Positions 17 through 34,735 of a DNA stretch of 53,212 nt are shown piece after piece. The DNA lies in assembly GCA_046726415.1 (NCBI GenBank), contig JBKPAK010000214.1:1-53212 (forward strand). The letters run 5' to 3'. A model generated the notes under the pieces. The model was not told the DNA's origin. It ran no database searches and worked only from the letters and a program-made list of their open reading frames with translations. The translations under genes were made by a program, and so were the position numbers. Numbering within the stretch: the stretch's first letter is position 1; each line of letters starts with the position of its first letter. The DNA comes from Candidatus Methylomirabilota bacterium. GTDB taxonomy: Bacteria > Methylomirabilota > Methylomirabilia > Rokubacteriales > CSP1-6.

Positions 17-466
17 ATGGCACGCTTGACGATCAACGGCAGATCTCTCGAGGTCGACGTCAATCCCGCGACACCCCTACTGTGGGCGATCCGAGAACAG
101 GTCGGCCTCACCGGCACCAAGTACGGCTGCGGCATCGCGCAGTGCGGCTCCTGCACGGTGCACCTCGACGGCGCGGCGGTCCGCTCCTGCGTGGTGCCCG
201 TCAGCGCAGCCGTGGGAAAGCAGGTCACCACCATCGAAGGCCTGGCCAGCGGCGGTGTCCTGCACAAGGTGCAAAAGGCCTGGCTCGACCATGAGGTGCC
301 GCAATGCGGCTACTGCCAGGCGGGCCTGATCATGGCGGTGGCGGCGCTCCTGAAGGACAAGCCGAAACCGACCGACGCCGAGATCGACGCGGGGATCACC
401 AACATCTGCCGGTGCGGCACCTTCCAGCAGGTGCGTGAGGCCATCCACGCTGCGGCCAGAGCATAA
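17..466 (+). CDS. (2Fe-2S)-binding small subunit of a xanthine oxidase-family molybdenum hydroxylase (IorA/CoxS-like)
   Basis: [16 protein letters not shown]...RSC and QCGYCQ...NICRCGT give two 2Fe-2S motifs; RBS GGAGGA upstream. Confidence 0.95.
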
Positions 467-478
467 GGGGTAGATGCC

Positions 479-2659
479 ATGATCACCGAGGCTTCGAAGT
501 TCAATCGCCGCTCCTTCATCATCGGCACCGCCGCGGCCGGCGGTGGGCTCGCCCTCGGTCTGAACCTTCCCTCCGGCGTCAGCGTCGTCCGCGCACAGGG
601 CGGCGCGCCCGAGGTCACCGCCTGGGTGGTGATTCGCCCGGACGACACGGTGGTGATCCGGATCGCGCGTTCCGAGATGGGGCAGGGAACGCTCACCGGC
701 CTGGCCCAGATGGTGGCCGAGGAACTCGAGTGCGACTGGACCAAGGTGACGACCGAATACCCGACGCCCGGCCAGAGCGTCGCGCGCAAGCGCGTATGGG
801 GCGATTTCTCCACGGGCGGCAGCCGCGGCATCCGCGACTCGCATCAGTACGTGCGCGAGGGCGGCGCCACCGCGCGGGTGATGCTGGTTCAGGCCGCTGC
901 CGAGGCCTGGGGCGTGCCGGCCTCCGAGTGCAGCGCGGCGAACAGCGTGATCACGCACCGTCCGTCTGGACGCACGACCACCTACGGCAAGGTGGCCGAA
1001 GCCGCCGCGAAGGTGACGCCCCCGGCAAAGGTGGCCCTCAAGGATCCGAAGGACTGGAAGCTCATCGGCAAGCCCGTGAAGCGCCTCGACACGATGGACA
1101 AGCTGACCGGCAAGCAGGTCTACGGCGCGGACCTGAAACTGCCCGGGATGCTCAATGCCGCGATCAAGGATTGTCCCGTATTCGGCGGCAAGGTGAAGAG
1201 CTTCGAGGCGGCCAAGGTCAAGGGCCTGCCCGGCGTCCGCCACGTGGTGCCGGTCGGCGATTCCGCGATCGCGGTCGTGGCTGATACGTGGTGGCAGGCC
1301 AAGACCGCGCTTGACCAGGTACCGATCGTCTGGGACGAAGGCCCGAATGCCAAGGTGTCGAGCGCGACGATCGCCGAAATGCTCAAGGCTGGCCTTGACG
1401 CCGACCAGGCCTTCGTGGCCAACCAGAACGGCGACGTGAAGGTCGCCCTCGCCGGCGCCGCGAAGAGGATCGAGGCCGTCTACGCCTATCCGTTCCAGAA
1501 CCACGCACCGATGGAGCCGATGAACGCGACGGCGCGCTACACGGCGGATCGCTGTGAGGTGTGGGTGCCGACGCAAAACGGTGAAGCCGCGTTCGCGGCC
1601 ACCCTCGCGGCGTCCGGTCTTCCGGCCGATCGGTGCGAGGTCTACAAGATCAACCTGGGCGGCGGGTTCGGGCGGCGCGGAGCCTTCCACGACTACGTCA
1701 CCCAGGCCGTCCTGATCGCCAAGCAAATACCGGGGACGCCGGTCAAGCTGTTGTGGACGCGCGAGGAGGACATGACGCACGGCCGCTATCACCCGGTCAT
1801 GCAGTGCAAGCTGGTAGGTGGGTTCGATGCCAACAACAACCTCACCGGTCTGCACATGCGCCTATCGGGGCAATCCATCCTCAGCGTCGTGCGCCCGGAA
1901 GCTCTTCAGCAGGGCCGCGACCCTCTGGTGTTCCAGGGGCTCAACCCGAGCGGCGACTTCGCCCTCGGATACAGCGTGCCGAACTTGCTGATCGACCATG
2001 CGATGCGCAACACCCACGTCCCGCCCGGGTTCTGGCGGGGTGTGAACATCAACCAGAACGCGATCTTCCTCGAGTGCTTCATCGACGAGCTCGCCCAAGC
2101 CGCCGGCCAGGACGCGCTCGAGTTCCGCCGCACGCTGATGAGCAAGCATCCCAAGCACCTCGCCGTGCTGAACGCTACGGCCGATCGAGCGGGATGGGGC
2201 AAGCCGGCGCCGCAGGGCGTGTATCGCGGGCTGGCGCAGATGATGTCGTTCGGCAGCTACGTGGCGGCGTGCGCGGAGATCTCCGTCAGCGGCGGAAACA
2301 AGATCAAGATTCACCGCATCGTCGCCGCGACCGATCCGGGGTACGCCGTCAACCCCGCCCAGATCGAACGGCAGATCGCCGGGTCGTTCGTCTACGGACT
2401 GTCCGGACTGTTCATGGAGGAGTGCACAGTCAAGGACGGCCGCATCGAGCAGACCAACTTCAACACCTACGACTCGATGCGGATCGCCCAGATGCCGAAG
2501 GTCGAATCGATCATCATGCCGTCCGGCGGCTTCTGGGGCGGGGTCGGCGAGCCGACGATCTGCGTGGCCGCGCCGGCGGTCCTGAACGCGTTCTTCGCGG
2601 CGACCGGCCAACGCATCCGCACGTTCCCGCTGAAGAACCACGGCATCACGCTGGTGTAA
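479..2659 (+). CDS. Molybdopterin-binding large subunit, IorB-like aldehyde/isoquinoline oxidoreductase family, Tat-exported
   Basis: Twin-arginine NRRSFII; SEMGQG, GGGFGRRG, GFWRGV and GGVGEP motifs; 726 aa. Confidence 0.93.
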   Translation: MITEASKFNRRSFIIGTAAAGGGLALGLNLPSGVSVVRAQGGAPEVTAWVVIRPDDTVVIRIARSEMGQGTLTGLAQMVAEELECDWTKVTTEYPTPGQSVARKRVWGDFSTGGSRGIRDSHQYVREGGATARVMLVQAAAEAWGVPASECSAANSVITHRPSGRTTTYGKVAEAAAKVTPPAKVALKDPKDWKLIGKPVKRLDTMDKLTGKQVYGADLKLPGMLNAAIKDCPVFGGKVKSFEAAKVKGLPGVRHVVPVGDSAIAVVADTWWQAKTALDQVPIVWDEGPNAKVSSATIAEMLKAGLDADQAFVANQNGDVKVALAGAAKRIEAVYAYPFQNHAPMEPMNATARYTADRCEVWVPTQNGEAAFAATLAASGLPADRCEVYKINLGGGFGRRGAFHDYVTQAVLIAKQIPGTPVKLLWTREEDMTHGRYHPVMQCKLVGGFDANNNLTGLHMRLSGQSILSVVRPEALQQGRDPLVFQGLNPSGDFALGYSVPNLLIDHAMRNTHVPPGFWRGVNINQNAIFLECFIDELAQAAGQDALEFRRTLMSKHPKHLAVLNATADRAGWGKPAPQGVYRGLAQMMSFGSYVAACAEISVSGGNKIKIHRIVAATDPGYAVNPAQIERQIAGSFVYGLSGLFMEECTVKDGRIEQTNFNTYDSMRIAQMPKVESIIMPSGGFWGGVGEPTICVAAPAVLNAFFAATGQRIRTFPLKNHGITLV

Positions 2660-2662
2660 GCC

Positions 2663-2953
2663 ATGCGCAGGGCCCTGGCCGCGGCGAGCGGGTTCGCCTC
2701 AATCGCCGCCGCCGTGGTGGCGTCGGCGGAGCCGCCGGCCGGTGCCGCGGCGTGCTCCGGTTGCCATCCGACATCGACGCAGGTGACGTCGCCCGTGGCC
2801 CGCCTCAACGGGCTCGATCGGGCCGCGATCGTCAGGGCCATGCAGGACTTCCGCTCGGGCCAGCGGGCCGCCACCGTCATGGACCGGATCGCCAAGGGGT
2901 TCACTGACGCGGAAATCCAGGCCATCGCCGTCTGGTACGCCACGCAGCGGTGA
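2663..2953 (+). CDS. Monoheme cytochrome c (flavocytochrome c cytochrome subunit-like)
   Basis: Signal peptide, CSGCH, TVMDRIAKG Met ligand region; GTGA overlap with the downstream flavoprotein gene. Confidence 0.88.
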   Translation: MRRALAAASGFASIAAAVVASAEPPAGAAACSGCHPTSTQVTSPVARLNGLDRAAIVRAMQDFRSGQRAATVMDRIAKGFTDAEIQAIAVWYATQR

Positions 2954-4224
2954 AGGTGGACCGCCGCGCATTCCTGAAGCTCGGGATTGCGGCCACCGCC
3001 TCGGCCGGGCTCATCCCCGTTTCCGCGTTCGCGCAGGGAGCCGCGCCACGCGTCGTGGTCGTCGGGGGAGGCTTTGCCGGCACGAGCTGCGCCCGCGCCC
3101 TCCGGCAGGCCGATCCGCGCATCGCCGTGACCTTGGTCGAGGCGAACGCCACCTTCACCGCCTGCCCGTTCAGCAACGCGGTGATCAGTGGCCTGCGAGA
3201 GCTGAGCGCCCAGCAGTTCACGTACGAGCGCGTCGCCGCCGACAGCATCGCCGTAGCCCGCACGACCGCGACCGCAGTGGACGCGCCGGCGCGGTCCGTT
3301 GTGCTCGCCGACGGCGCGCGCCTGCCATACGACCGGCTCGTTCTGGCGCCCGGCATCGAGATTCGCTGGGGCGCGCTGCCGGGCTACGACGAAGCGGCGG
3401 CCGCGCACATGCCACATGCCTGGCTCGCCGGCGAACAGACCGTGCTGTTGCGCCGTCAGCTCGAGGCCATGCCGGACGGTGGCCTCGTCGTGATCTCGGC
3501 GCCGGCGAATCCGTTCCGCTGCCCGCCCGGGCCCTACGAGCGCGCCAGCCTGATCGCCCACTATCTCAAGACGAAGAAGCCGCGCTCCAAGCTGATCATC
3601 CTCGACGCCAAGGACACGTTCTCCAAGCAGCGGCTGTTCCAGGCCGCGTGGGCCGAGCTGTACCCGGGTCTCCTCGAGTGGATCCCCCTATCCAAGGGCG
3701 GCAACGTCACTTCGGTGGACGCCGCGACCGGCACGCTCGTGACCGATTTCGGCCGGCACCAGGCGGCGGTGGCCAATGTCATCCCGCCGCAGAAGGCGGG
3801 CCGCATCGCGGACGCCGCGGGTGTCGCCGACCGCTCTGGCTGGTGCCCGATCGATCCGGTGACGTTCGAGTCGAAGCTGCAGGCCGGCATTCACGTCATC
3901 GGAGATGCGGCGATCGCCGGTGCCATGCCGAAGTCGGCCTTTGCCGCGAACGCGCAGGCCAAGACCTGCGCGGCGGCGGTCGCGCAGCTCCTCGCCGGCG
4001 GAACGCCACCGACCCCCAAGTTGATCAACACCTGCTACAGCCTGGTCGCGCCCGACTACGGGATCTCGATCGCCGGCGTCTACTATCCTTCGAGCGGGCA
4101 GCTCGCCGAGGTTCCCGGCTCTGGCGGCGTCAGTCCCTCGGAGGCGCCGCGCGCCACGCGCACGGCCGAGGCCGTGCTCGCCGAGGCCTGGTTCCGCACC
4201 ATCGCTGCCGAGGTGTTCGGGTGA
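2950..4224 (+). CDS. fccB: Flavocytochrome c sulfide dehydrogenase flavoprotein subunit (FccB/SoxF family)
   Basis: Tat signal DRRAFLK, VVVVGGGFAG FAD motif, CPFSN, FRCPPGPYER and NTCYS cysteines. Confidence 0.92.
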   Translation: MKVDRRAFLKLGIAATASAGLIPVSAFAQGAAPRVVVVGGGFAGTSCARALRQADPRIAVTLVEANATFTACPFSNAVISGLRELSAQQFTYERVAADSIAVARTTATAVDAPARSVVLADGARLPYDRLVLAPGIEIRWGALPGYDEAAAAHMPHAWLAGEQTVLLRRQLEAMPDGGLVVISAPANPFRCPPGPYERASLIAHYLKTKKPRSKLIILDAKDTFSKQRLFQAAWAELYPGLLEWIPLSKGGNVTSVDAATGTLVTDFGRHQAAVANVIPPQKAGRIADAAGVADRSGWCPIDPVTFESKLQAGIHVIGDAAIAGAMPKSAFAANAQAKTCAAAVAQLLAGGTPPTPKLINTCYSLVAPDYGISIAGVYYPSSGQLAEVPGSGGVSPSEAPRATRTAEAVLAEAWFRTIAAEVFG

Positions 4225-4646
4225 GCGGCCCGCGGCGATGGTCGGCCGCCATCGCCGTGCTCTGTTGCCTGGTGGGTGTGGCCGAGGCGAACGATGCGAT
4301 ACCGGAGTCGCTCACCGGCGCCAGGGGCGATCCGGCGCGCGGCCGCGCGATCGTCGTCAACCGCCAGGTCGGGCTGTGCCTGCTCTGCCACAGCGGCCCA
4401 TTCCCGGAAGAGCGCTTCCAGGGCAATCTCGCGCCCGATCTCCGGGGAGCCGGCACGCGTTGGTCCGAGGGCCAGTTGCGGCTCCGGATCGTGGATTCCA
4501 GTCGCATCAATCCGGCCACAATCATGCCGGCGTATCATCGAACCGAGGGACTGGTGCGGGTGGCGCCAGCGTGGCGCGGCAAGCCCGTCCTGAGCGCCGA
4601 GCAGATCGAAGACGTCGTGGCCTTCTTGATGACATTGAAGGGCTGA
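4221..4646 (+). CDS. soxX: Sulfur oxidation c-type cytochrome SoxX
   Basis: 3' part of ORF 3648..4646. GTG at 4221 overlaps the fccB stop. GDPARGRAIV, CLLCH, GNLAPDL and IMPAY motifs. Confidence 0.9.
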   Translation: MSGPRRWSAAIAVLCCLVGVAEANDAIPESLTGARGDPARGRAIVVNRQVGLCLLCHSGPFPEERFQGNLAPDLRGAGTRWSEGQLRLRIVDSSRINPATIMPAYHRTEGLVRVAPAWRGKPVLSAEQIEDVVAFLMTLKG

Positions 4647-5123
4647 ATGGAACGGCACACGTCACGCCGGGAATTCCTGCGGGCCGCCGGGGGGGTCGCC
4701 GCCGGCCTGGGGCTCGGGTCGGTGATCGCGGCCGTGCCCGCGCGCGCCACGCCCGCCGCGATGCAGGAGGCCATCCGCCAGGTGGTGGGCTCCGCGCGCG
4801 TCAACCCCGGCAAGGTGAAGCTCGAGTTGCCGCCGCTCATCGAGAACGGCAACGCGGTGCCGCTCGCGGTCAGCGTGGAGAGCCCGATGACCGAGGCCGA
4901 CCACGTGAGGGCCATTCACCTCTTCACGGAAAAGAACCCGCAGCCCAATGTCGTGAGTTTCCACCTCGGGCCGCGCGCCGGGCGGGCGAGGGTGGCGACC
5001 CGCATTCGGCTGGCCAACTCGCAGACGGTGGTGGCGATCTGCGAGCTGAGCGATGGCGCGTTCTGGTCCGACAGCGCCGACATCGTCGTCACCCTCGCGG
5101 CGTGTCTGGAGGACGGGATCTAG
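4647..5123 (+). CDS. SoxY-related carrier protein with AAC(I/L)E-type arm
   Basis: Tat signal SRREFL, ENGNAVP, EKNPQP, TRIRLA; C-terminus VVTLAACLEDGI rather than VTIGGCGG. Confidence 0.88.
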   Translation: MERHTSRREFLRAAGGVAAGLGLGSVIAAVPARATPAAMQEAIRQVVGSARVNPGKVKLELPPLIENGNAVPLAVSVESPMTEADHVRAIHLFTEKNPQPNVVSFHLGPRAGRARVATRIRLANSQTVVAICELSDGAFWSDSADIVVTLAACLEDGI

Positions 5124-5125
5124 CC

Positions 5126-5446
5126 GTGGCGAACGCATTGATCAACGTGCCGGCGCGGGCCAAACGCGGCGAGGTCATCGAGATCAAGACGCTGGTTTCG
5201 CATGTGATGGAGACCGGATTTCGCCGCACCCAGCTCGGCGCGCCGATTCCGCGCGACATCATCCGACAGTTCGTGTGCACCTACAACGGCACGGAAGTCT
5301 TCCGGGCCGAGCTTCACCCGGCCATCGCCGCCAATCCGTTCATCGCATTCGCGACGGTCGCCACCGAGAGCGGCACCATCGCCTTTCAATGGACCGGCGA
5401 CAACGGCTTTTCGCTGACCGAATCGGCCACAATCACCGTGGAGTGA
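5126..5446 (+). CDS. soxZ: Sulfur carrier complex protein SoxZ
   Basis: 3' part of ORF 4238..5446 from GTG 5126: IKTLVSHVMETGFRR, AIAANPF, WTGDNG; no signal peptide. Confidence 0.9.
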   Translation: MANALINVPARAKRGEVIEIKTLVSHVMETGFRRTQLGAPIPRDIIRQFVCTYNGTEVFRAELHPAIAANPFIAFATVATESGTIAFQWTGDNGFSLTESATITVE

Positions 5447-6220
5447 ATGCGGCCACTCGGTGCCGCGGTGGGGGTGATCGCATTGGCGGCGTCGGCGTTG
5501 GCCGGCGAGAGCTCGCCCTCCGACCGCCGCTCGGGCTACGACTTCATGAGTCGCGAGACGCGCGCGATGCAAGACGACGACACCGCTAACCCGGGCCTGC
5601 TGTGGGTGCTGGAGGGTGGAACGCTGTGGAACCTGAAGACCGGCGCCGATGGCCGCGCCTGTGCCGAGTGCCACGGCGATGCCAGCCAGAGCATGAAGGG
5701 CGTCGCCGCGCGCCATCCGGCGTTCGACGCCGCTCGAGGACGGCCAGTCAGTCTGGAGCAGCGCATCAACCTCTGCCGCGTCGACCGGCAGCGGGCGCCG
5801 GCGCTTGCCTACGAGAGCCGGGAGCTTCTCGCGCTCACCGCCTACGTCGCGCGGCAATCGCGAGGCCTGCCGATCGAGATCGCGATCGACCGGCGGATGC
5901 AGCCGTTCCTCGACGCCGGCCGGGCCACCTTCAATCGGCGCCAGGGCCAGCTCAATCTCGCGTGCAGTCAATGCCACGACGCCAATTGGGGCCGGCAGCT
6001 CGCGGGCAATGTCATCCCGCAGGCCCATCCGACCGGTTACCCGCTCTACCGACTGGAGTGGCAGGGCCTCGGCTCGCTCCAGCGGCGGTTGCGCAATTGC
6101 CTCGTCGGGATCCGCGCAGAACCATATGACTACGGGGCCCCGGAGCTCGTCGACCTGGAGCTCTTCCTGATGTGGCGCGCGCGCGGGATGACCCTCGAGG
6201 CACCCGCCGTGCGGCCCTGA
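5447..6220 (+). CDS. soxA: Diheme sulfur oxidation cytochrome SoxA
   Basis: CAECH and CSQCH heme motifs, RINLCR, RQGQLNLAC, YPLYRLEW, active-site RLRNC, C-terminal PAVRP. Confidence 0.93.
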   Translation: MRPLGAAVGVIALAASALAGESSPSDRRSGYDFMSRETRAMQDDDTANPGLLWVLEGGTLWNLKTGADGRACAECHGDASQSMKGVAARHPAFDAARGRPVSLEQRINLCRVDRQRAPALAYESRELLALTAYVARQSRGLPIEIAIDRRMQPFLDAGRATFNRRQGQLNLACSQCHDANWGRQLAGNVIPQAHPTGYPLYRLEWQGLGSLQRRLRNCLVGIRAEPYDYGAPELVDLELFLMWRARGMTLEAPAVRP

Positions 6221-6247: not shown

Positions 6248-7357
6248 CTAGACCGGGGCGTTTGAGTGCGCGAGCAGACGGTGAGGCCCGACGCCGGCGG
6301 CGAGCGGGTGATCATGGCCCTGCACCAGCGCCGCGAGCAGCTCCCCCGCGCCGACGCCCATGCTCATGCCTGAACCGCCCAACGCCGCGAGCCAGTAGAG
6401 TCCCTCGACCCGTGAGTCCGCCCCGATGACGGGGAGTCGGTCGGGCGCGAACGTCCGCAAGCATGCCCACGCGCGTCGTAGCGCGGCCAGGCCGAGGCTC
6501 GGAGCGAGCTTCGCCAGCCGATCGGCGAGCGTCTCGAGTGCGTCCGCGTCGGTGGGCGGCAGGCTCGGCGGCCAGCGTACCTCGTCGCAGGGGCTCGCGA
6601 GGACGCCGCCGGACTCGGGGCGGAAATAGACTTCCACACCTAGCGCCCACACCGTGGGTCCCTGCTCGTCCACGGGGTCCGGGGGATCGAGCTGCGCGAG
6701 GTGGCGACGCAACGGCTGCAGTGGTAGCCCGGCGCCACACGAAGTGCCGAGCGCTTGAGCCCAAGCGCCCGGCGCGAGCACCACCGCATCGGCGCCGATG
6801 ATCCCCCCGCCCCTCAATTCGAGACCCTGCAGGCGCCCGGCGTCGACGCGGACCCGCGCAACCTCTTGGCCGAGGACGATCCGGGCGCCCGCGGCCTGCG
6901 CGCGCTCGGCGAGATGCGAGGTGATCAGGTGGATGTCGAGCACGCCGGCCTCGGGCAACAGCAGCCCGGCCTCGGCGAATCCGCCAGCCAGCACCGGGAC
7001 GCGCGCCTCCAACTCACGGCGGCCGAGCACGACGTGGGGAGCGCCAGCCGCGCGAGCCCGCGCCGCCTCCTCGCGCAGCATGGCCTCGTCGGGCGCCACG
7101 TACATGAACCCGTCGGCCCGCAGCCACCGCGCGCGGCCCAGCATGTCGTCGAGCAGCTCGCGCGAGCGCTGGGAGAGGTCACCCCACGTCCCGCCCGAGA
7201 GGCCTACATAGATGGCCGCGTTCCGGGCCGAGCTGTGGGTGGCCACCAGGGCCTCTCGCTCGAAGAGCGTCACCGCCGTCGCGCCGCCGCGCGCCAGGTG
7301 GTACGCGGTCGCGAGCCCCGCGATGCCGCCGCCAACGATCGCGATGCGAGTGCGCAT
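6248..7357 (-). CDS. FAD-dependent oxidoreductase (DAO/glycine oxidase/sarcosine oxidase beta family)
   Basis: IAIVGGGIAG, SSARNAA, APGAW, RTFAPDRLPVIG; start trimmed to the Met before the FAD motif. Confidence 0.88.
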   Translation of the reverse strand: MRTRIAIVGGGIAGLATAYHLARGGATAVTLFEREALVATHSSARNAAIYVGLSGGTWGDLSQRSRELLDDMLGRARWLRADGFMYVAPDEAMLREEAARARAAGAPHVVLGRRELEARVPVLAGGFAEAGLLLPEAGVLDIHLITSHLAERAQAAGARIVLGQEVARVRVDAGRLQGLELRGGGIIGADAVVLAPGAWAQALGTSCGAGLPLQPLRRHLAQLDPPDPVDEQGPTVWALGVEVYFRPESGGVLASPCDEVRWPPSLPPTDADALETLADRLAKLAPSLGLAALRRAWACLRTFAPDRLPVIGADSRVEGLYWLAALGGSGMSMGVGAGELLAALVQGHDHPLAAGVGPHRLLAHSNAPV

Positions 7358-7525
7358 ACTCCCTATCTTGCCAGAGAAGGCGCGGATACCATGACGGCTC
7401 ATGATCAAGGCGCTGCGCACCAGCAAGAGCGTGGACTCCCCTTGACTCATCGGCCGGAGCGGGTTCAGAGTTCAGACTCCGCCCGCAAGACATCGGGCGA
7501 CCGCCCATCCCCGAAGGGAGGATCC

Positions 7526-8569
7526 ATGATCACGCCTCGCAAGCGCGTCACGGCTCGCAGCGCCTGGCGGCCCCGCGAGTTCCCGGACCGTAACGCCTAC
7601 ACGGTCGCGCTCAATGACGCTCACCTCGCCGTTTTCGACTCGGCCCTCGCCGCGAACCGCGCGGCCGGGCGCCGCCTCGAGGACATCACCGCCGACGACT
7701 TCGCGCTCGGAGCCATCGCTAGCGACATGGCGGCCTGGCGGAACGAGGTGCTAGACGGGCGCGGGTTCGTCGTGCTGCGCGGGCTGTCGCTCGACCGCTA
7801 CTCATCTGACGATCTGGCCGAGATCTTCTGGGGCCTGGGTACCCATCTCGGACGCGCCGTGTCGCAGAGCTCTATGGGCGATCGGCTCGGGCACGTCACC
7901 GACGTGGGGGGCCAGGATCGGCGCGAGCGCGCCTATCGGAGCAGCCGCGAGCTCACCTTGCACACCGACCGCTGCGACGTCGTCGGCATGCTCTGCCTGA
8001 CCCAGGCCATGAGCGGCGGCGTCAGTGGCTACGCCAGCGCGCACACCATCTACAACGAGATTCTCGCCTCCCGGCCCGCCCTGCTCGAGCCGCTGTTCGC
8101 GGGCTTCCGCTATCATCGCCGGGGCGAGCAGCTTCCGGGTGAGCCTCCGATCACGCAGGAGCCCGTGCCGGTGCTTTCAGAGTGCGAGGGCGAGCTGAGC
8201 GTGGTATTTCTGAGGTCCTACATCGAAATGGCCGCGAAGGAACTGGGCGACCCCCTGAGCGACACGGAGCAGGAAGCGCTGGACTACTTCGAGGAAGTGG
8301 CGCGCCGGCCCGACGTCAAGCTCGAGTTCACGCTCGAGCCGGGCGAGGCGATCTTCTTCAACAACTGCACGATGCTCCACAATCGGACGGCCTTCGAGGA
8401 CCACTCCGATCCCGAGCTGAAGCGGCACCTCCTCCGACTCTGGCTCATGCTGGACGGACGCCGCCCCCTCGCCCCGGCCGTCCACGTGTACAAGGGAACG
8501 CAAGGTATTGTCGGCCGCCACGCGGGATCAACGTACTACACCGGCCTCGCGCTTCCCGACCGGTACTGA
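7526..8569 (+). CDS. TauD/TfdA family Fe(II)/2-oxoglutarate dioxygenase
   Basis: GRGFVVLRG, LHTD, FFNNCTMLHNRTAF, RHLLRLWL; RBS GGAGG before ATG 7526. Confidence 0.9.
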   Translation: MITPRKRVTARSAWRPREFPDRNAYTVALNDAHLAVFDSALAANRAAGRRLEDITADDFALGAIASDMAAWRNEVLDGRGFVVLRGLSLDRYSSDDLAEIFWGLGTHLGRAVSQSSMGDRLGHVTDVGGQDRRERAYRSSRELTLHTDRCDVVGMLCLTQAMSGGVSGYASAHTIYNEILASRPALLEPLFAGFRYHRRGEQLPGEPPITQEPVPVLSECEGELSVVFLRSYIEMAAKELGDPLSDTEQEALDYFEEVARRPDVKLEFTLEPGEAIFFNNCTMLHNRTAFEDHSDPELKRHLLRLWLMLDGRRPLAPAVHVYKGTQGIVGRHAGSTYYTGLALPDRY

Positions 8570-10658: not shown

Positions 10659-12059
10659 TCACCGCGGCTCGGGCGGACGGCGCTCGCGCCAACCGGCCGC
10701 CTGCTCGTACGCCCAGCCGATCCGCAGCGCCATGGCTTCGTCGCCGGGATGGCCGAGGATCTGGAGCGACGTCGGCAGGCCATCGGCGGTGAAGCCGTTC
10801 AGGATGGCGAGGCCGCAGAGCCCGAGATAGTTCCCGCCACGCGTGAAGTGCGCGGCGGTGCGGGACTGGTCTACCGAGGCGATGGGGATCGGCGGGGTCA
10901 GCGCCGTTGGCGTCAGGAGCGCGTCGACCTCGGCGAGCGCCGCCGCGAAGGCGCGCTTGTGGTCCTCGCGCTTCGCCAGGGTCGAGAGGTAGTCGCGCGC
11001 CGAGATGTCCCGGCCGAGCTGGATGCGCGGCCGCACGTCAGGATCGAGCGGCAGGCTCGGGTCGTCGACGAGGTGGCCGACGAAGCGATACCCCTCGACG
11101 CCGATGATCTGTCCGGTGGCGGCGGCGTAGTCGCGCAGCCGATGGGGGAGCTCGGCGCGGACGATCTGCGCGCCCAGCGTGGCCAGCGCGTCGATCGACG
11201 AGTCGTACGCCGCGAGGACTTCCACGTCGACGCCTTCCCGCTCGGCATCGGGAAGCACGGCGAGGCGGAGGCCGCCGACGCCACGGCGGAGCGTCGGCAT
11301 CGGATCGGCCGGCGACCAGGCGAGGGTCTGAGGGTCGCGCGGATCCGGGCCATTCAGCAGTCGGAACATGAGCGCCGCATCCTCGACGGATCGCGTCAAC
11401 GGCCCCGGGGTGTCGAGGGTGAAGCTGAGCGGGAGGATGCCGTACGTGCTGATCCTGCCCGCCGTGACCTTGAGACCGACGGTGCCGCACCACGCGGCGG
11501 GAATCCGCACCGAGCCGCCGGTGTCGGTGCCGATGGCGACCGGCGCCAGTCCCGCCCCGACGGCAACGCCCGATCCGCTCGACGACCCGCCGGGCGTCCG
11601 GTGGACGGAGAGGTCCCAGGGATTGCGCGGCGCGCCGAGGTGCGTGTTCGTGCCCCAGCTTCCCATCGCGAACTCGACGGTGTGCGTCTTGCCGAGCACG
11701 ATCATGCCCGCGGCGATCACCCGCTCGGCTAGGGTGGCGGTGACGGGCGACACGCGGTCGGCCCAGAACTTCGAGCCGCCGGTCGTCACGCGGCCCTCGA
11801 GATCCACGAGGTCCTTGAGCGCGATCGGCACGCCGTGCAGCGGGCCGACACGCTGACCGGCGCGGATGGCCTTGTCGGCGGCTTCGGCGGCCAGCCGCGC
11901 GTCCCTGTCGTAGACGGCGATGAAGGCGTGAAGGGCAGGGTTCCGCATCGCGATCCGGTCGAGGAGCGCCTCGACGGCATCGACCGGGGAGAGGGTACGC
12001 TCGCCGAATGCGCGGGACAGCTCGGCGGCGGTGGCCCAGATGGGATCGAGCGTGGCCAT
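10659..12059 (-). CDS. Amidase signature family protein
   Basis: GVPIALKD, GGSSSGS, GTDTGGSVRIPA. Confidence 0.95.
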   Translation of the reverse strand: MATLDPIWATAAELSRAFGERTLSPVDAVEALLDRIAMRNPALHAFIAVYDRDARLAAEAADKAIRAGQRVGPLHGVPIALKDLVDLEGRVTTGGSKFWADRVSPVTATLAERVIAAGMIVLGKTHTVEFAMGSWGTNTHLGAPRNPWDLSVHRTPGGSSSGSGVAVGAGLAPVAIGTDTGGSVRIPAAWCGTVGLKVTAGRISTYGILPLSFTLDTPGPLTRSVEDAALMFRLLNGPDPRDPQTLAWSPADPMPTLRRGVGGLRLAVLPDAEREGVDVEVLAAYDSSIDALATLGAQIVRAELPHRLRDYAAATGQIIGVEGYRFVGHLVDDPSLPLDPDVRPRIQLGRDISARDYLSTLAKREDHKRAFAAALAEVDALLTPTALTPPIPIASVDQSRTAAHFTRGGNYLGLCGLAILNGFTADGLPTSLQILGHPGDEAMALRIGWAYEQAAGWRERRPPEPR

Positions 12060-26993: not shown

Positions 26994-27976
26994 TCACGGC
27001 TGCTTCAGCTTGACGTCCTCCAGCGGTCCCGAGTACGCGAAGCTCCGGATCAGGTTGATGCCCGGCTCCTCCACGCGCGGGCCGACGCCCCAGATGAACG
27101 CCAGCTCATAGATCGGGATGTGGGTGACCACTGGTCCGGGAGATCGAGCCAGAAGACCGAGGGAGCTACCGCGCGAGAGACCAGCTTGAATCCGGGACTC
27201 CGCTGAATGTCCTCGGCGACGGGGCCGGTCAAGAGATAGGCGATGTCCACCTCGCCGTTCTTGAGGGCGGCCGCGCGCGTCGTCTCCTCCGGCAGGCTCC
27301 GGTAGACGAGCCGTTTGACGCTGGGGACCTTGCGCCAGTACCCCTCGAACGCTTCCATCACCAGCTCGATCCCCGGGTTGAAGCTCACGAACTTGTACGG
27401 TCCGGCGCCGATCGGCGCTTTCTTGAACCCGTCATCGCCCACTTTCTCGACGTAAGCCCTGGGCACGATCCATGCCGCGCCGCTGGCCGTCGTGCCGTAG
27501 AACGCCATGAAGTCCGGCTAGGGATCCTTCAGGTGGAAGCGCACGCGGCCCGGATCCACGGCCTGGACCTCGCGCACGCGCTCCTTGAGGATCTTCACCC
27601 CCGAGCCCTTGTATCGCTCGAAGGAGAACTTCACGTCCGCGGCCGTGACCGGCTCGCCATTGTGGAACTTCGCGACCTTGCGAATGACGAACCCGTAGGT
27701 GAGCCCGTCCTTCGACTGCGTGAACGACTCCGCGAGGCTCGGAGTATAGAGGCCGGCCGGCATGGGCTTCACCAGCGCGTCGTGGAGGGCGTAGAGCACC
27801 ATGAACGGCGTGGCGATTCCCTCGGTCTCGCCGGGGTCGAGCCAGCGGGAGGCCAGTGTGATGTGGACTCCCCAGGTCATGGTGCCTTCGGGAGGGGCCG
27901 CCGCCGAGCCGGCGGCCCCGAAGCCCAGGACGAGCGCCACCAAGACGATGACGACACGCGAGGTGAATGACCTCAT
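26994..27976 (-). pseudogene. ABC transporter substrate-binding protein (family 5) pseudogene
   Basis: Signal peptide, LDPGETEG, FHNGEPVTAADVKFS; in-frame TAG at 27518-27520 (KDP*PDF); after DLPDQW the sequence jumps out of frame to the C-terminus VTHIPIYELAFIWGVGPRVEE...LEDVKLKQP*. Confidence 0.88.
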
Positions 27977-27986
27977 GGGTTCCTCC

Positions 27987-28727
27987 CTAGAGTGCGCGTA
28001 CGGCACGAAGGACGTCGTCCGGGTCGGGTCGAACCTGGAAGTTCCTGCTGACCGAGAACCAGCGCACGATCCCGTCGCGATCCAGCACGACCGTCGCCGG
28101 CCGCGGAACGTCCTGCTTGTCCGCCCCTCCGCCCGCGTGCACCAGGCCATAGCGCCGCGTCACGGCGAGGTCGCGGTCGGCGAGGAACCGATAGCCGAGG
28201 CGCAGTCCGTCGGCGAGCTTCTGGCTCTGCTCGTTGGAATCAGGTGACACGGCGACGATCTCGACGCCGGCTCGCTCGACCTCTGACAGCTGGGCTCCAA
28301 GCCCTTGGAGCTCCGCCACGCAGAACGGTCACCAATATCCGCGGTAGAACACGAGCACGACCGGTTTCTTGTCGCGGTAGTCCGCGAGCGATACCGGCCG
28401 GCCCGCCGCATCGGGCAGCGTGAAGTCGGGCGGCCGCTCGCCCACCCGCAGCGCCGTCTGGGTGACCGGCACCCGCGCGGCGACGAAATTGAACCAGGCG
28501 CCGGCGACCAGCAAGAGGCTCGAGAACCCGAGCGCCAGCCAGGCGGGCCACCGCCGAGCCTGCGCGCGGACCACGGCCACTGCGGCGAGCGCCGTCGCCA
28601 GGGCGAGCGCCACCACGTAGCCCTCGGGGTGGTTCCGGACGACTGCGACCCGGAGGAGGAGCACATAGGCGGCGACGGCGCCGATCGCGACGACGACACT
28701 GAGGGCGGCGAGTCGTCCGGGGGTCAT
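27987..28727 (-). CDS. Membrane-anchored AhpC/TSA (peroxiredoxin-like) selenoprotein, UGA read as Sec in a U-P-F-C motif
   Basis: ORFs 28329..28916 and 27987..28319 are in frame across TGA 28329-28331: PPDFTLPD...VVLVFYRGYW-U-PFCVAEL...VAVSPD...FLAD...PATVVLDRDG; SECIS-like hairpin follows. Confidence 0.85.
28294..28311 (-). promoter_or_regulatory. Bacterial SECIS-like stem-loop
   Basis: mRNA GCUCCAA-GGGC-UUGGAGC, 7-bp stem with a G-led apical loop; 24 nt lie between the UGA and the loop. Confidence 0.75.
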
Positions 28728-29857: not shown

Positions 29858-30023
29858 GCAGGTCATCCGCTCGGGCGCGTGATCCGGCGCTTGGGGCGCA
29901 GCGTCGGCCCCATGCGCGACGCCCAGGGTGGGGGTGGGGACCGTCTCATTGACAGGCGTCTTTTCGATTCCCGACAATAGACCACTTTTCCCAGGGCTGA
30001 AAGCCGTGAAGCAAGGAGGCCCG

Positions 30024-31343
30024 ATGGTGGTCACCACCGCCCGCAAGGACTTCCCGGTGTTCGACTGCGATAGCCACGTCGTCGAGCCGCCGTCGGTGTG
30101 GGACGAGTACGTGCCGGTCAAGAGCCGCGCCTGGATCAAGACCCAGTTCTGCTTCCACACCGACAGCGATCTTTTGTACATCAACGGGCGGGTGGTCCCC
30201 GCCGCCCGTGAGCGCTCGAACGCCGCCGAGGTGGGCTGGGCGCGCTGGGATAAGAAGGAGGTGGGCAAGCTCACCCCAGGCACTGCCGCATGGCAGGAGA
30301 GGTTCGGGCGCCTGCTCGGCTGCCGCGACCCAAAGGCCCGGCTCGACGACATGGACGCGCTGGGCACCGATCAGGTGATGCTGTTCCCCACGTGGTTCGT
30401 GCGCCTGGCGCTGGTGCGCAGCGCCGAGGCGGCCACGGTGCTGGCTCAGGCCTACAACAACTGGGTGCTCGACTATTGCGCCGCCGATAAGCGGCGGCTG
30501 TTTCCCTGCGCCGTGCTGCCCTTGCAGAGCGTCGAGGCGTCGATCGCGGAGCTGCAGCGGGTCGCGGGACTGGGCTTCAAGGCGGCGGCGGTGCGCCCCT
30601 GCTTCTGGAACGGCCGCTATCCCACCCTCCCCGAGTTCGACTCGCTGTGGCGCGAGTTCGAGGCCACGGGCGTGGTGCTCGCCATGCACACCTTCCCCTC
30701 GCGCGAGGCGCTGACCCCCGAATGGGGCCAGCGCATGTCCCAGGCGCGCGGCCATTCGGGGCAGGGACTGTTGTTCACCGACGAAGCGGTTGTCTACTCG
30801 CCTGGCCAGTTCGTCTCCAACATCACCGCGGCCATGGACCCGGCCATCGACGCCTCCGAGACGCTGGGCTTCCTGATGGAGGCGATGACCTGGGTGACGG
30901 TGGTCGTGCAGACCGGCTGGCTGGAGAAGTTTCCCACGCTCAAGGCGGCGGTGCTGGAGTCCAACGCCTCGTGGCTCCCCCTGATCCTGGCACGGAGTTC
31001 GAACTTCTCGAACCTGTTCGCCTTCCAGCGCGACAACCGGCTCATCCGCGATCCGGTCGAGGTGTTCAACGCGCGATGCTTCATCGGCTTCGAGTCGGAC
31101 GAGACGCTCGTCTATCGCCTGTGGGACGTGTTCCAGGACGTCGCCATCTGGTCCTCGGACTATCCGCACCACGACGCCGAGGACGCCTGGGACGGCCTGC
31201 ACCACATGGCCGAGTTCAACGTGCCGGCCAAGGCACAGCAGAAGCTGATGGGCGAGAATGCGCGCCGGCTCTACGGCATCGAGCCGCTGATGGTGGTGAA
31301 AGATCGGATCGAGGCGTACGAACCCGCGATCCTGCCCTGGTAG
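30024..31343 (+). CDS. Amidohydrolase family protein (Amidohydro_2)
   Basis: FDCDSHVVEP, AYNNW, LAMH, LESNASW, WSSDYPH; RBS AAGGAGG. Confidence 0.9.
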   Translation: MVVTTARKDFPVFDCDSHVVEPPSVWDEYVPVKSRAWIKTQFCFHTDSDLLYINGRVVPAARERSNAAEVGWARWDKKEVGKLTPGTAAWQERFGRLLGCRDPKARLDDMDALGTDQVMLFPTWFVRLALVRSAEAATVLAQAYNNWVLDYCAADKRRLFPCAVLPLQSVEASIAELQRVAGLGFKAAAVRPCFWNGRYPTLPEFDSLWREFEATGVVLAMHTFPSREALTPEWGQRMSQARGHSGQGLLFTDEAVVYSPGQFVSNITAAMDPAIDASETLGFLMEAMTWVTVVVQTGWLEKFPTLKAAVLESNASWLPLILARSSNFSNLFAFQRDNRLIRDPVEVFNARCFIGFESDETLVYRLWDVFQDVAIWSSDYPHHDAEDAWDGLHHMAEFNVPAKAQQKLMGENARRLYGIEPLMVVKDRIEAYEPAILPW

Positions 31344-31353
31344 GCGCCCCGCG

Positions 31354-32103
31354 ATGCCTGCTCGGATGATCGACGGTACTGAGGATGGGGTGTTGATCGG
31401 CATCGAGTTCACGACGTTCTCGCTCATCGGCCGATGTGAGCACACCGGCATGTTCGGGATCGCCATCGCGACCAGCGAAATGGCCGTCGGCTCACGGTGC
31501 ATTCACGTGGCTCCGGGGGTGGGCGCCGTCGTGACCCAGGCCAGCACCAATCCGCGTCTCGGCCATCTCGGTTTGAATCTCCTGCGCGCCGGGTACTCGG
31601 CGCCGCGCGCCTTGGAGGAGATCGCGGCGACCGACCAGTTCGTCGAACGCCGGCAGCTCGGATGTCTGGACGTGAGTGGTCTGGCCGCCGCGCGCACGGG
31701 CGCCGGGAACAAGCCGTGGGCGGGCCATCGCGCCGACCGGAACGTGGTTGTCGCGGCCAACGCGGTCCTGGGGGCGGAGGTCGCGGACGCCATGTACGAC
31801 GTGTTCCAGCGAGGGGCTGACCTCGCGCTCTGGGAGCGACTTCTGCGATCCCTCGAGGCGGGCAAGGCGGCCGGAGGCCAACCGAACGGCGAAGTCTCCA
31901 GCGGGCTCTTCGTCGTGGACCGCGAGCCGTTTGCCATGGTCGATCTCCGCGTCGATCTGCATCCCGAGCCCGTCGCCGAGCTCCGCCGGCTGGCCGACGC
32001 CTACTTCCCGCTCGTCCCCTACTACAACCTGCGCCCGCGCGATCCGAACGTGCCGTCAGCCGCGGAGTGGCTCACCGCCGAGCGCCGACGGGGCGGTGAC
32101 TAA
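31354..32103 (+). CDS. DUF1028 family (Ntn-hydrolase-like) protein (start uncertain)
   Basis: TFSLIGRC...GIAIAT...AVGSR, GAVVTQA, RQLG, DLRVDLHPEPVAELRRL. Confidence 0.85.
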   Translation: MPARMIDGTEDGVLIGIEFTTFSLIGRCEHTGMFGIAIATSEMAVGSRCIHVAPGVGAVVTQASTNPRLGHLGLNLLRAGYSAPRALEEIAATDQFVERRQLGCLDVSGLAAARTGAGNKPWAGHRADRNVVVAANAVLGAEVADAMYDVFQRGADLALWERLLRSLEAGKAAGGQPNGEVSSGLFVVDREPFAMVDLRVDLHPEPVAELRRLADAYFPLVPYYNLRPRDPNVPSAAEWLTAERRRGGD

Positions 32104-32207
32104 ATGAGCATCTCGGTGAACCATCGCGCGAAGTCGGAAAGGCTAGAGCGCGACAGGCGCCCACGTCGAACGCGAGTCGACCATCGTCGCGGCCGCGCCG
32201 ACGGGCC

Positions 32208-33302
32208 TCAGTCGCTGACGTCGACGATGGCGATTACCGGGCCGCCGCCGTGCGGCCCCTGGTGCATGGCATCGACCGAGACGAACACCGCCGGATCGCC
32301 GATGGCCGTCGCCGCCACAGCGCCCACCGCCGCCTTGGAGTGGCGGTGATGGTGGACATCCGAGTCATCGAGCATGATCTGCCGGCGGCTCCGCAGCTTG
32401 CCGCGGTGGTCGGCCTCGCACTTGATGAAGCAGTTCACCACGCGTCCCTGAAGGTCTTCTGCGCGGGCCCGGTCCGGCAGTTCGAGCCCGGCATTGCGGA
32501 TGGCCCCGTAGATCCCGTCGATGTCGAGCGCGTCCTTCATGACGCCATGGCCGATGCGGTAGCGGCCGCCCGCGCCGGCGCGGTTGCCCATGAGGACGAT
32601 CTGTGCCTGGGTCAGCTCTACGCCGGAGGAGCACGACGCGACTGACGAGTAGAGTTCGAGGTCCCTGCAGATCTGCTCGGCCCGCGGCATCGGGAGCTCG
32701 CCCAGGGCCACCCCGATGCCGAGGGCGGTGGTGCCGTTGGAGACGCCCATCGAGTCGTGGACCTCGCAGGCGACGGTCTGGCCGCGGCGCTTGGCGTCCT
32801 CCACCCAGTCGATCGTGAGCAGCGGCGTCTTCGTCTGCACGTAGTGCACGTCCTTCGGGTCCTCGATGCCGGCGTTCTTCATCGCCGCCCGCACCCCTTC
32901 CGCGACGATCTCCACCATGCGCGGTCGGCCGATGTCCTCGGGCCTGAGCTCCGCACTCATGGCGGCACCGATCACTAGGCGCGACTTGGTGGCCGGGCCC
33001 GTCCGGGTGTTCCGGGCGAACACGGTGGCGTGAGGCGTGATGACGCCGTCGCAGCCCCCGGACCACACCATGGGGATTGCCGCGACCTCTGCCTCGCTGC
33101 GCTTGCCGTACTTGAGCAGCACCCGCCGGAAGGCCTGGTCGGCGAGAAGGCGGGTGAAGTCGTTGACGCCTCCGTTCCCTTCGGTCTTCCCGATCACCGC
33201 CACCACCTCGTCGGCAGTGATCTGGCCCGCGCGAAGGCGCTCCTCGAGCCCGGAGGCGTCCTGGACGCTCTTCAGCTCGACCTTTGCCACTTCGACAGCC
33301 AT
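32208..33302 (-). CDS. Ring-opening amidohydrolase of the AtzD/barbiturase family, barbiturase-like
   Basis: [56 protein letters not shown]. Confidence 0.92.
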
Positions 33303-33451
33303 CGGCGTCTCCTTGACTTGAGGATGGATTCGATGGTCTCTGCGTTCCGCCCGCCGCACCTCTGTCGGTGAGGGTACGTCAACATCTCGGCGCGAAGGGC
33401 AGCTTCTTCGCGGGGAGAATACTTCTCAGCGAGTTGAGCTAAATTAGGGCC

Positions 33452-34081
33452 ATGAGCCCACGCGACCACGACGACCATGACCACGGCTCGGAGCTCTCGG
33501 AGCCCGAGCTTCGGGTGCGAGCCCTCGAGACGATCCTCACCGAGAAGGGCTATGTCGATCCGGGCGTGCTCGACCTCATTGTCGAACACTACGAGACCAA
33601 GACCGGTCCCCACATCGGGGCCCGGGTGATCGCCAAGGCGTGGGTCGATCCCCAGTTCAAGGCCGCGCTGCTCGCGGATGCGAGCAAGGCGATCACCGCG
33701 CTTGGCCTCCCCAGCGGCGTGGGCGACCACCTCATTGCGGTAGAGAACACTCCCGGGCTGCACAACATGGTCGTCTGCACGCTGTGCTCCTGCTACCCGT
33801 GGGACGTCCTCGGCCTCCCCCCGGTCTGGTACAAGTCGGCGCCTTACCGCTCCCGGGCCGTCATGGACCCGCGCGGCGTGCTCGCCGACTTCGGGGTCAC
33901 GCTGCCGGCGGATACCGAGATCCGCGTGTGGGACTCCACCGCCGAGACCCGCTTCATCGTGCTGCCTTCGCGCCCGGCCGGCACCGAGGCCTGGAACGAG
34001 GAGCGGCTCGCCTCCTTGGTGACTCGCGACTGCATGATCGGCACCGGCCTGCCCAGACGGCCCGAGGAGACCTCGGCATGA
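33452..34081 (+). CDS. nthA: Cobalt-type nitrile hydratase alpha subunit
   Basis: [10 protein letters not shown] (Thr/Tyr is the Co-type signature), [10 protein letters not shown], His/Asp-rich N-terminus. Confidence 0.97.
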
Positions 34082-34734
34082 ACGGCGTGCACGACATGGG
34101 CGGCCTGCACGGATTTGGAAAGGTCGAGGCAGAGCCGAACGAACCCCCGTTCCATGCCGCCTGGGAGGGGCGCGTGCTGGCGATGCAGCGCGCCCTCAGG
34201 GCCACTGGCGCCTGGAACATCGACATGTCGCGGGATGCCCAGGAGCGAGTGCCGGCCCCGGTCTACCTCTCGGTGTCCTACTACCACCGATGGGCCCTAG
34301 GGATCGAGCGCAATGCGCTCGATCACGGGCTGGTCGGTGCCGACGAGATCGCGGTCGGCCATGCGCTCCGTCCCGGCAAGCCCCCGAAAGGGGTCCTGAC
34401 GAAGGACGAGATCGGCGCAGCATTCACGCGCGGCTCGTTCGGCCGCCCGGCGAGCCGAGAGGCGCGGTTCGAGGCGGGCGACCAGGTACGCGCGAAGAAT
34501 ATCAATCCGCCTGGCCACACCCGCCTGCCACGCTACGCGCGTGGCCGCGTCGGGCTCGTGGAGGCAGTGCGCGGGTGCCATGTGTTCCCGGACTCCGCCG
34601 CGAAGGGCGCCGGCGAGAATCCACAATGGCTGTACACCGTGGTGTTCGAGGGTCGCGAGCTCTGGGGCGAGAACGCCGACCCGAACCTGAAGGTCTCGGT
34701 GGAGGCGTTCGAGCCGTATCTGGAGCCGGCCTGA
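34078..34734 (+). CDS. nthB: Nitrile hydratase beta subunit
   Basis: [37 protein letters not shown] overlap with nthA. Confidence 0.96.
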
Positions 34735-34735
34735 C

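Follow-up and report, generated by a model that had tools for sequence, protein, structure and literature searches.

What does a xanthine-oxidase-family molybdenum enzyme do at the head of a sox operon that encodes neither SoxB nor SoxCD? The question is raised by positions 17-6220 of the window, the 53,212-nucleotide stretch of a Candidatus Methylomirabilota genome analysed here, in which eight co-directional and tightly packed genes run in the order iorA, iorB, cytochrome c, fccB, soxX, soxY′, soxZ′ and soxA. Canonical thiosulfate oxidation by Sox uses SoxXA, SoxYZ and SoxB, with or without SoxCD, a sulfane dehydrogenase of the sulfite-oxidase family of molybdenum enzymes that acts on SoxY-bound sulfur. 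The reading we favour, held tentatively and at nearly an even chance, is that the molybdenum enzyme IorAB processes an adduct which SoxXA has loaded onto Cys153 of the carrier SoxY′, in place of SoxB and SoxCD. It is preferred because the constant partners are the molybdenum enzyme and a variant carrier, because the contact predicted between them runs through the carrier arm, and because the system exists without SoxB.

On this reading the operon would encode a self-contained periplasmic oxidation system built around a carrier protein. SoxXA would oxidatively load Cys153, on the arm at the C-terminus of SoxY′ (which is paired with SoxZ′), with a substrate that contains sulfur; IorAB would dock on SoxY′Z′, draw the loaded arm into its substrate channel and there oxidise or hydroxylate the tethered adduct, presumably at molybdenum, doing the job of SoxB and/or SoxCD in canonical Sox. 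Electrons would leave through the two [2Fe-2S] clusters of IorA towards c-type cytochromes, and FccAB, where present, would oxidise sulfide that is fed in or released. The further claim that IorAB is the first xanthine-oxidase-family enzyme to work on a carrier-tethered substrate, with the Cys153 arm entering the active-site channel and the bound sulfur or organosulfur adduct being oxidised, we rate as possible but leaning towards doubtful.

Conservation of the cassette

In a sample of 251 genomes of the window's phylum (Rokubacterial bins from soil metagenomes), 50 have a match above the cut-off of the NCBIfam model TIGR04487, which SoxY′ also passes. Forty-seven of the 49 matches outside the own genome were taken with about 9 kb on each side and scanned with the window's proteins; G076 and G217, flagged as unpublished, were omitted. 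A scan of contigs from one genome per species returned at least 552 stretches encoding a relative, the best 80 of which were taken as loci. Since 35 of the 47 phylum loci also appear, as identical DNA, among the best 80, the two samples together give 92 distinct loci. Of the 8000 candidates scored in a protein search, 7222 clusters passed E ≤ 1e-20, a figure not restricted to AAC-arm copies, and a SoxY′ relative of 90% identity carries the NCBI label of TIGR04487, 'SoxY-related AACIE arm protein'.

The sequence-only reading had supposed that similar gene sets occur in other bacteria, and the 92 loci, from several clades, bear this out. The order iorA-iorB-cytochrome c-fccB-soxX-soxY′-soxZ-soxA is held in all 47 phylum loci as far as the contigs reach. 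Of the 92 distinct loci, 79 have iorAB directly upstream of the soxY′ set and in the same orientation; in the remaining 13 the contig ends first, and no other gene was found in the place of iorAB. Among the best 80, 33 are labelled Rokubacteria or Methylomirabilota; the other labels are Xanthobacteraceae, Bradyrhizobium, Rhodoplanes, Stellaceae, Hyphomicrobiales, Burkholderiales and further Betaproteobacteria, and Gammaproteobacteria. A few of these labels are likely binning errors; one 'Limnocylindria' bin falls in the window's own family and its IorB inside the Rokubacterial clade.

Gene content was compared over the 70 informative loci of the best 80. In 46 of them IorB is followed by the small cytochrome, FccB, SoxX and SoxY′; in eight the small cytochrome is not detectable; 13 have neither FccB nor the cytochrome; and in three soxY′ comes directly after iorB. 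SoxZ and then SoxA follow SoxY′ in 76 of the 80 loci. Because FccAB is missing from 16 of the 70, the core of the cassette is iorAB with soxX-Y′-Z-A, and FccAB is optional. The small cytochrome and FccB occur together in 46 loci and the cytochrome without FccB in none, which marks the window's 96-aa cytochrome as an FccA/SoxE-like partner of FccB. We had also considered it as a third subunit of IorAB, and rejected this since it tracks FccB and not IorB. In the 16 loci without FccAB, SoxX and SoxA are the only haem proteins and may also carry the electrons of IorA onward. The most tightly kept pairing is that of IorAB with SoxY′Z′.

Several few-contig assemblies (L044, L047, L050, L051, L072 and L080) show iorB, fccB or soxA matches broken into in-frame pieces; these suggest frameshifts that are probably assembly indels rather than real pseudogenes. 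At least one organism with the cassette (Bradyrhizobium sp., locus L149) is not labelled as a metagenome bin, and Starkeya novella, which has a similar cluster, has been cultured.

The carrier itself departs from true SoxY. It ends in VVTLAACLEDGI and scores 111.7 bits against TIGR04488, the model of true SoxY, below the cut-off of 125. Cys153 is invariant in 50 of 50 sequences, and all 80 related primary copies have AC[LIVTA]E in the arm and none has GGCGG.

SoxB is absent from the cassette and its surroundings. Neither SoxB nor SoxC was found within about 9 kb of any cassette locus, no SoxC or SoxD-like match occurs in the cassette loci, and a tblastn search with SoxB from a relative, in which the positive control was found, gave no match in the window or in 137 related loci (1.885 Mb). 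The possibility that soxB or soxCD lies just past the contig break upstream of iorA was considered and rejected, as no locus has SoxB or SoxC nearby and a locus of the same genus (L091) has a methyltransferase-like ORF upstream. The own genome (G000; 352 contigs, 98% complete) has no match to the SoxB model TIGR04486. At E ≤ 1e-50, SoxB is likewise missing from 12 of the 50 AAC-SoxY-positive genomes, the own genome included (G000, G076, G116, G160, G161, G181, G211, G163, G152, G039, G086 and G010), whereas 37 have SoxB elsewhere and G227 has fragments only; leaving out the flagged G076 and G217, 48 of 249 genomes are positive and 11 of the 48 are without SoxB, and none of the conclusions depends on those two genomes alone. 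Many bins are incomplete, so the absence is weak in any single one of them; the absence from the own, 98%-complete genome is stronger. The cassette is independent of SoxB.

These data bear on the explanation that the operon is a spare or isoenzyme Sox set for ordinary thiosulfate or sulfide oxidation, working with SoxB and SoxCD encoded elsewhere and functionally unrelated to iorAB. SoxX, SoxZ and SoxA do pass the curated cut-offs of the canonical families, the genomes with SoxB elsewhere form the majority, and the own genome has its only SoxXA in the cassette and a true, GGCGG-type SoxYZ on another contig, C8. Set against this are the own genome and 11 others without a SoxB match, an arm that is AAC[LIVTA]E in every primary copy and never GGCGG, and a linkage to iorAB that is universal wherever it is visible; the S. 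novella copy, according to the available text of its description, is not induced by thiosulfate (PMC3797975). We consider a spare set very improbable. The conserved iorAB-sox linkage and the lack of SoxB in the genome agree with the earlier suggestion of a distinct periplasmic unit outside the canonical thiosulfate pathway.

Around the cassette, no flanking gene family is common to more than 12 of the 80 loci, so the cassette travels as a unit. The families that do recur (ABC transporter parts, TctC, UbiD, UbiX-like, CMD, TPP enzyme and amidase) are clade-limited, and flanking genes were dropped as a clue to the substrate. A second explanation draws on them. IorAB would be a conventional periplasmic hydroxylase or dehydrogenase whose substrate is a small molecule in free form, such as an aldehyde, an N- or S-heterocycle or some other organosulfur compound, and SoxXA/Y′Z′ and FccAB would handle the sulfide or sulfur that results from it or occurs in the habitat; the genes would then travel together through consecutive steps and not through protein contact. 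We regard this as unlikely. UbiD, UbiX-like flavoprotein, CMD, TPP-enzyme and amidase genes recur near Xanthobacteraceae-like loci (4-9 of 80 per family) and hint at aromatic or heterocycle catabolism. On the other side, the UbiD-type genes are confined to loci of close kin and may reflect shared ancestry, and no transporter or catabolic neighbour is common across clades in the 80 loci.

Predicted docking of IorB on the carrier

The closest solved chain to IorB is PDB 8gy3_C, annotated as the large subunit of aldehyde dehydrogenase (residues 4-719, E 4.2e-74); other xanthine-oxidase-family structures match at E 1e-23 and weaker. Three IorB motifs, GGGFGRR (394-400), GFWRGVN (517-523) and GVGEP (688-692), are invariant in 50 orthologues, and the first and last align with LGGGFGRR and GLGEP of 8gy3_C. 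The Glu of GEP we take to be the catalytic base. That the nearest structure belongs to a membrane-bound aldehyde dehydrogenase speaks for a free substrate.

A complex of SoxY′ (residues 35-158), SoxZ′ and IorB (residues 40-726, the scored partner) was predicted from alignments of 48-50 orthologues each. It reached an ipSAE of 0.77 (0.77, 0.78 and 0.77 in three runs), the best of three controls reaching 0.00; at least 91% of the contacts are common to the runs, with a partner pLDDT of at least 88. Of 80 solved complexes 58 reach the mark applied to such predictions, as do 2 of 110 mismatched pairs, counts that are only a rough guide here because custom alignments and three chains were used. The interface comprises residues 62-67, 72, 97-98, 121, 123-124, 147, 149-154 and 156-158 of SoxY′, thus including the arm with Cys153, residues 32, 34-40 and 42 of SoxZ′, and, on the IorB side, five positions within 97-111 together with 301, 310, 367-383, 401-404, 466-494, 509-512, 518, 522 and 591. 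IorB contacts 401-404 directly follow the invariant GGGFGRR, and 518 and 522 lie inside GFWRGVN. By comparison with bovine xanthine oxidase, these motif positions presumably line the substrate pocket (G401 at about Glu802, V522 at about Phe914). We know of no solved complex of a xanthine-oxidase-family enzyme with SoxYZ that the prediction model could have memorised. The prediction supports a docking of IorB against SoxY′Z′ with the Cys153 arm in the interface. Outside this interface, Cys53 of SoxZ′ (FVCTYNG; at about 5282-5284 of the window) is invariant in 49 of 49 cassette orthologues.

Such a placing of the arm at pocket-side motifs argues against a free substrate, as do the three loci in which soxY′ directly follows iorB. 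It would fit a third explanation as well, the second mechanism of the sequence-only reading. In this, a persulfide made on the SoxY′ arm by SoxXA and FccAB would give back to the Mo centre of exported IorB the terminal sulfido ligand that it loses outside the cytoplasm, the substrate of IorAB being something else. A cyanolysable Mo=S is essential to enzymes of the xanthine-oxidase family, and XdhC-type chaperones normally put it in place in the cytoplasm. Maintenance of this kind needs the same arm docking as the processing of a bound adduct, and the cassette is without an XdhC-type chaperone. Yet the genome does have one XdhC-type gene (a single XdhC_CoxI match, on contig C180), six genes would be a costly way to service one enzyme, and the substrate of that enzyme would be left unexplained. 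We consider maintenance improbable. The predicted docking, which fits both the carrier-bound adduct and re-sulfuration, weighs only against an enzyme unconnected with the carrier.

Copies departing from the standard cassette

Three Burkholderiales loci have a second, diverged sox set adjoining the first (L120:9922-14823, L128:10150-15178 and L137:9850-12123), with the SoxY arm VTESACLD. In L120 and L128 it consists of IorA2B2-SoxX-SoxY″-SoxZ″-SoxA with an IorB of 51-60% identity, and so repeats the pairing of IorAB with SoxY; L137 is without a second IorAB. Four alphaproteobacterial bins (L119, L124, L127 and L134) carry two tandem iorAB pairs ahead of cytochrome c-fccB-soxX-Y′-Z-A. The distal IorB is 77-79% identical to the window's in L119, L127 and L134 and the proximal one 51-56%; in L124 the contig start truncates the distal copy (78%), and the proximal one has 66% identity.

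In a quick-search IorB tree (LG+G4, rooted on paralogues of 33-36% identity, long branches flagged), the Rokubacterial copies make up a starred clade that lies among Burkholderiales copies, while those of Xanthobacteraceae branch more deeply, a topology that hints at lateral transfer. The second IorB of L128 groups with a Rokubacterial clade whose members are 61-64% identical to the cassette enzyme.

In the same 251 genomes, IorB matches form three bands of identity: the cassette type at 81-92%, a second at about 57-64% and a third at about 40-49%. Three more (49%, 53% and 53%) lie between the bands. Ten high-identity places without a known SoxY′ were inspected, and six proved to be cassette pieces cut by contig ends. 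The other four bear on the reading itself and are weighed below.

Observations that weigh against a tethered substrate

Several observations weigh against the proposal that IorAB processes an adduct on SoxY′. The chemistry would be unprecedented, because to our knowledge no xanthine-oxidase-family enzyme acts on a protein-tethered substrate or on sulfane sulfur. The predicted complex is a statement of the model's confidence and not a measurement. Between cassette IorB and the unlinked 61-64% clade, 23 of 45 predicted contact positions differ, against 209 of 640 elsewhere (Fisher p = 0.014), with F518 facing P, F403 facing N and L468 facing N among them; positions conserved in both and different between them are not enriched at contacts (4/45 vs 45/640, p = 0.55). 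This test lends the docking weak support, since surface positions vary more anyway.

Four places carry iorAB alone with no sox genes downstream (L175 on G101:C174, L177 on G079:C33, L181 on G094:C89 and L183 on G010:C197). These copies are 85-89% identical to cassette copies, and their DNA homology to a full cassette of the same genome or a relative ends 0-86 nt past the iorB stop; in two of them it stops inside the start of the cytochrome gene, and in L177 part of the signal peptide of the cytochrome can still be read. Retention of iorAB without sox genes is therefore possible. All four genomes also carry a full cassette, whose carrier the solitary enzymes may borrow; the copies may also be partial duplicates or stem from bins of two strains.

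In the sister clade of 61-64% identity, none of 12 Rokubacterial loci has a Sox gene within about 6 kb, so this type of IorAB enzyme works without a carrier. Both the iorAB-only copies and the sister clade are what an enzyme for a free substrate would lead one to expect; the sister clade also counts against the maintenance of IorB by SoxY′, as it manages without a Sox partner.

Published work on relatives adds to the contrary side. The text available for S. novella describes a second cluster whose SoxAX and SoxYZ escaped detection in the proteome and whose transcript levels on glucose, methanol and thiosulfate were very low (PMC3797975). As reported in the available text for Bradyrhizobium diazoefficiens, thiosulfate oxidation needs soxY1 and not soxY2, the putative AAC-arm copy (PMC5748708).

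Gene content of the operon

The eight genes, all on the plus strand, are listed in Table 1 with the matches that identify them.

Table 1. Genes of the operon, with window coordinates and identifying features
Gene	Product	Position	Strand	Evidence
iorA	small subunit, two [2Fe-2S] clusters	17..466	+	Pfam Fer2_2 1.6e-26, Fer2 5.3e-09
iorB	Tat-exported molybdopterin-binding subunit, xanthine-oxidase family	479..2659	+	MoCoBD_1 9.1e-32, MoCoBD_2 4.5e-30
cytochrome c	monohaem cytochrome c, 96 aa, FccA/SoxE-like	2663..2953	+	CSGCH at residue 31; Cytochrome_CBB3 9.7e-4
fccB/soxF	flavoprotein subunit, flavocytochrome c sulfide dehydrogenase (FCSD)	2950..4224	+	FCSD_central 4.8e-49, FCSD-flav_bind 1.1e-24, Pyr_redox_2
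soxX	monohaem cytochrome	4221..4646	+	TIGR04485 81.8 bits vs cut-off 61; CLLCH at residue 53
soxY′	Tat-exported carrier, AAC arm, arm cysteine Cys153	4647..5123	+	TIGR04487 212.1 bits vs cut-off 172
soxZ′	SoxY′ partner	5126..5446	+	TIGR04490 83.5 bits vs cut-off 76
soxA	dihaem cytochrome	5447..6220	+	TIGR04484 222 bits vs cut-off 110

The tight packing reported from the sequence alone was confirmed, with junctions of +12, +3, -4, -4, 0, +2 and 0 nt in 5′-3′ order, and all eight gene calls stood apart from the start of soxZ′, which had been set inside soxY′ and was moved to GTG 5126, where it aligns with the consensus start Met of the orthologues. Third-position G+C is 0.86-0.94 in those operon genes that pass the frame filter. 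The run does end against a convergent gene, as had been noted; it encodes an FAD oxidoreductase of the DAO family (6248-7450, minus strand) and ends 27 nt past soxA. Since the window starts at the first base of contig C214, of which it is the first 53 kb, DNA upstream of the operon is missing in this genome.

IorA has eight Cys (38, 43, 46, 58, 97, 100, 131 and 133) and no signal peptide, and is presumably exported bound to IorB, which has a twin-Arg at residue 10 and a domain order of the IorB type. Profile searches found no domain of the CO-dehydrogenase-flavoprotein type in any of the eight gene products, and the operon has no FAD subunit. The 96-aa cytochrome has a signal-like N-terminus and a 4-nt overlap with fccB. 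FccB carries a Tat signal (RR at residue 5) and contains Cys72, Cys191 and Cys362, which we take to be the known FAD-binding and disulfide cysteines of FCSD. SoxY′ likewise begins with a twin-arginine motif. The haem motifs of SoxA are CAECH at 72 and CSQCH at 173, and the protein also contains Cys110 and Cys218.

Elsewhere in the window, a 604-aa ORF (6755-8569, plus strand) overlaps the convergent DAO gene and has its TauD domain only at residues 311-563; the true start of this TauD-like gene is probably near 7500-7700. One SBP_bac_5 solute-binding protein is split into adjacent ORFs of 152 and 210 aa (27050-28150, minus strand), likely by a frameshift or as a pseudogene. An amide- and nitrile-chemistry cluster at 10659-12059 and 29928-36810 includes two amidases, Amidohydro_2 proteins and DUF1028, a ring-opening amidohydrolase of the AtzD/TrzD type (32208-33359, minus strand) and a nitrile hydratase alpha subunit (33452-34081). 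No tie between the sox operon and these amidase and nitrile genes in the rest of the window was seen.

Other sox genes of the genome

The operon holds the only SoxXA of the own genome, and its SoxA is the only one above the cut-off. A true SoxY and a SoxZ are encoded on contig C8 (119359-127149; L007:2860-10650), where the SoxY ends in VTVSGCGG and passes the TIGR04488 cut-off. They directly follow an FGE-sulfatase/EgtB-like protein, a YeeE/TsuA-like transporter, a TtrB/DsrO-like Fe-S protein with a DsrP-like membrane part, and a PhsA-like molybdopterin oxidoreductase, and the set may be a second pairing of a carrier with a molybdoenzyme.

A solitary SoxC lies on contig C291 (7642-9460; L008), at 587.8 bits against a cut-off of 420; downstream is a short SoxD-like ORF of 179 aa that matches no NCBIfam family, and SsuA/SsuC-like genes of a sulfonate-type ABC transporter adjoin. 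The earlier statement that SoxB and SoxCD are lacking holds for the operon; in the genome as a whole SoxB is lacking too, but a SoxC is present. This SoxC resembles the 'paralogous SoxCD' class as described in the main text of PMC13500833. On contig C156 (52250-52996, minus strand; L009:9251-9997) a fused SoxYZ-like protein of 248 aa scores 101.9 with TIGR04557, below the cut-off of 140, next to a TlpA/ResA-like thiol-disulfide oxidoreductase and an SsuA-like binding protein.

Significance

With the window, a cassette that has been in print before, has a named NCBIfam family and is uncharacterised gains a Rokubacterial example without SoxB. In the literature searched, which left out most subscription journals and supplements, no function was found assigned to the cassette. 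The sequence-only reading was right in this respect; the gene set is not, however, new to print, being listed for S. novella in the available text of PMC3797975 and represented by the NCBIfam model. What is added here are the counts of architectures, the optional FccAB, the iorAB-only copies, the unlinked sister clade and the predicted IorB-SoxY′Z′ interface.

The cassette is common, with at least 552 stretches encoding a relative in the one-genome-per-species contigs and 50 positives among the 251 sampled Rokubacterial genomes. A 2026 survey reports, in its main text, about a thousand sox paralogues outside sox clusters, and the words 'xanthine' and 'isoquinoline' occur nowhere in that text (PMC13500833). 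Because genome surveys such as this count the soxA, soxX, soxY and soxZ of the cassette as 'paralogs' of the thiosulfate pathway, sulfur-oxidation potential may be misread where SoxB is absent, the own genome being a case in point.

If IorAB does process an adduct on SoxY′, this would be a third route for SoxY-bound sulfur besides hydrolysis by SoxB and oxidation by SoxCD. It would constitute an oxidation pathway independent of SoxB and widespread in soil bacteria of at least two phyla, would widen the known chemistry of the xanthine-oxidase family and would add a branch to the sulfur cycle.

Comparison with known systems

The nearest published counterpart is the second sox cluster of S. novella, soxX2Y2Z2A2F2 (Snov_1982-1977), which forms one operon with a xanthine-oxidase-family molybdenum enzyme (Snov_1975/1976) and is without SoxB and SoxCD (Kappler and Nouwens 2013; PMC3797975, available text). 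Going by the published gene list alone, it shares with the window SoxXA, SoxYZ, a SoxF-type flavocytochrome and the molybdenum enzyme. The genes of the latter are listed after soxF2, whereas iorAB comes first in the window, and S. novella has a complete sox cluster too, whereas the window's genome is without SoxB. Its authors regarded the second cluster either as without functional significance or as having a role under conditions they had not tested (PMC3797975).

TIGR04487 is named after an AACIE arm, yet SoxY′, which passes its cut-off, has AACLE; the model names the protein family only, and is silent on a molybdenum enzyme partner and on function.

The FccAB part resembles FccAB/SoxEF in its FCSD_central and FCSD-flav_bind domains and in the small cytochrome gene that overlaps upstream, though in the cassette it is an optional passenger.

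With isoquinoline 1-oxidoreductase and the 8gy3 aldehyde dehydrogenase, IorAB shares the types of subunit, the domain order, the Tat signal on the large subunit and the lack of an FAD subunit. The substrates of those enzymes are small molecules in free form, and the membrane-bound aldehyde dehydrogenase relies on a multihaem cytochrome subunit, whereas the constant neighbours of the window's IorAB are SoxY′Z′ and SoxXA.

Canonical Sox of the Paracoccus pantotrophus type has in common with the window a periplasmic location, SoxXA cytochromes, a SoxYZ-type carrier with a cysteine on a C-terminal arm and an optional SoxF/FccB. It differs in its arm, GGCGG against VTLAACLE, and in that the window has neither SoxB nor SoxCD in the operon, no SoxB in the genome, and IorAB as the constant partner. 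If the favoured reading is correct, IorAB would be the counterpart of SoxCD, using molybdenum to oxidise what is bound to the carrier arm and handing the electrons to cytochrome c. The two belong to unrelated families of molybdenum enzymes, and IorAB has another cofactor environment and Fe-S clusters in place of the haem subunit.

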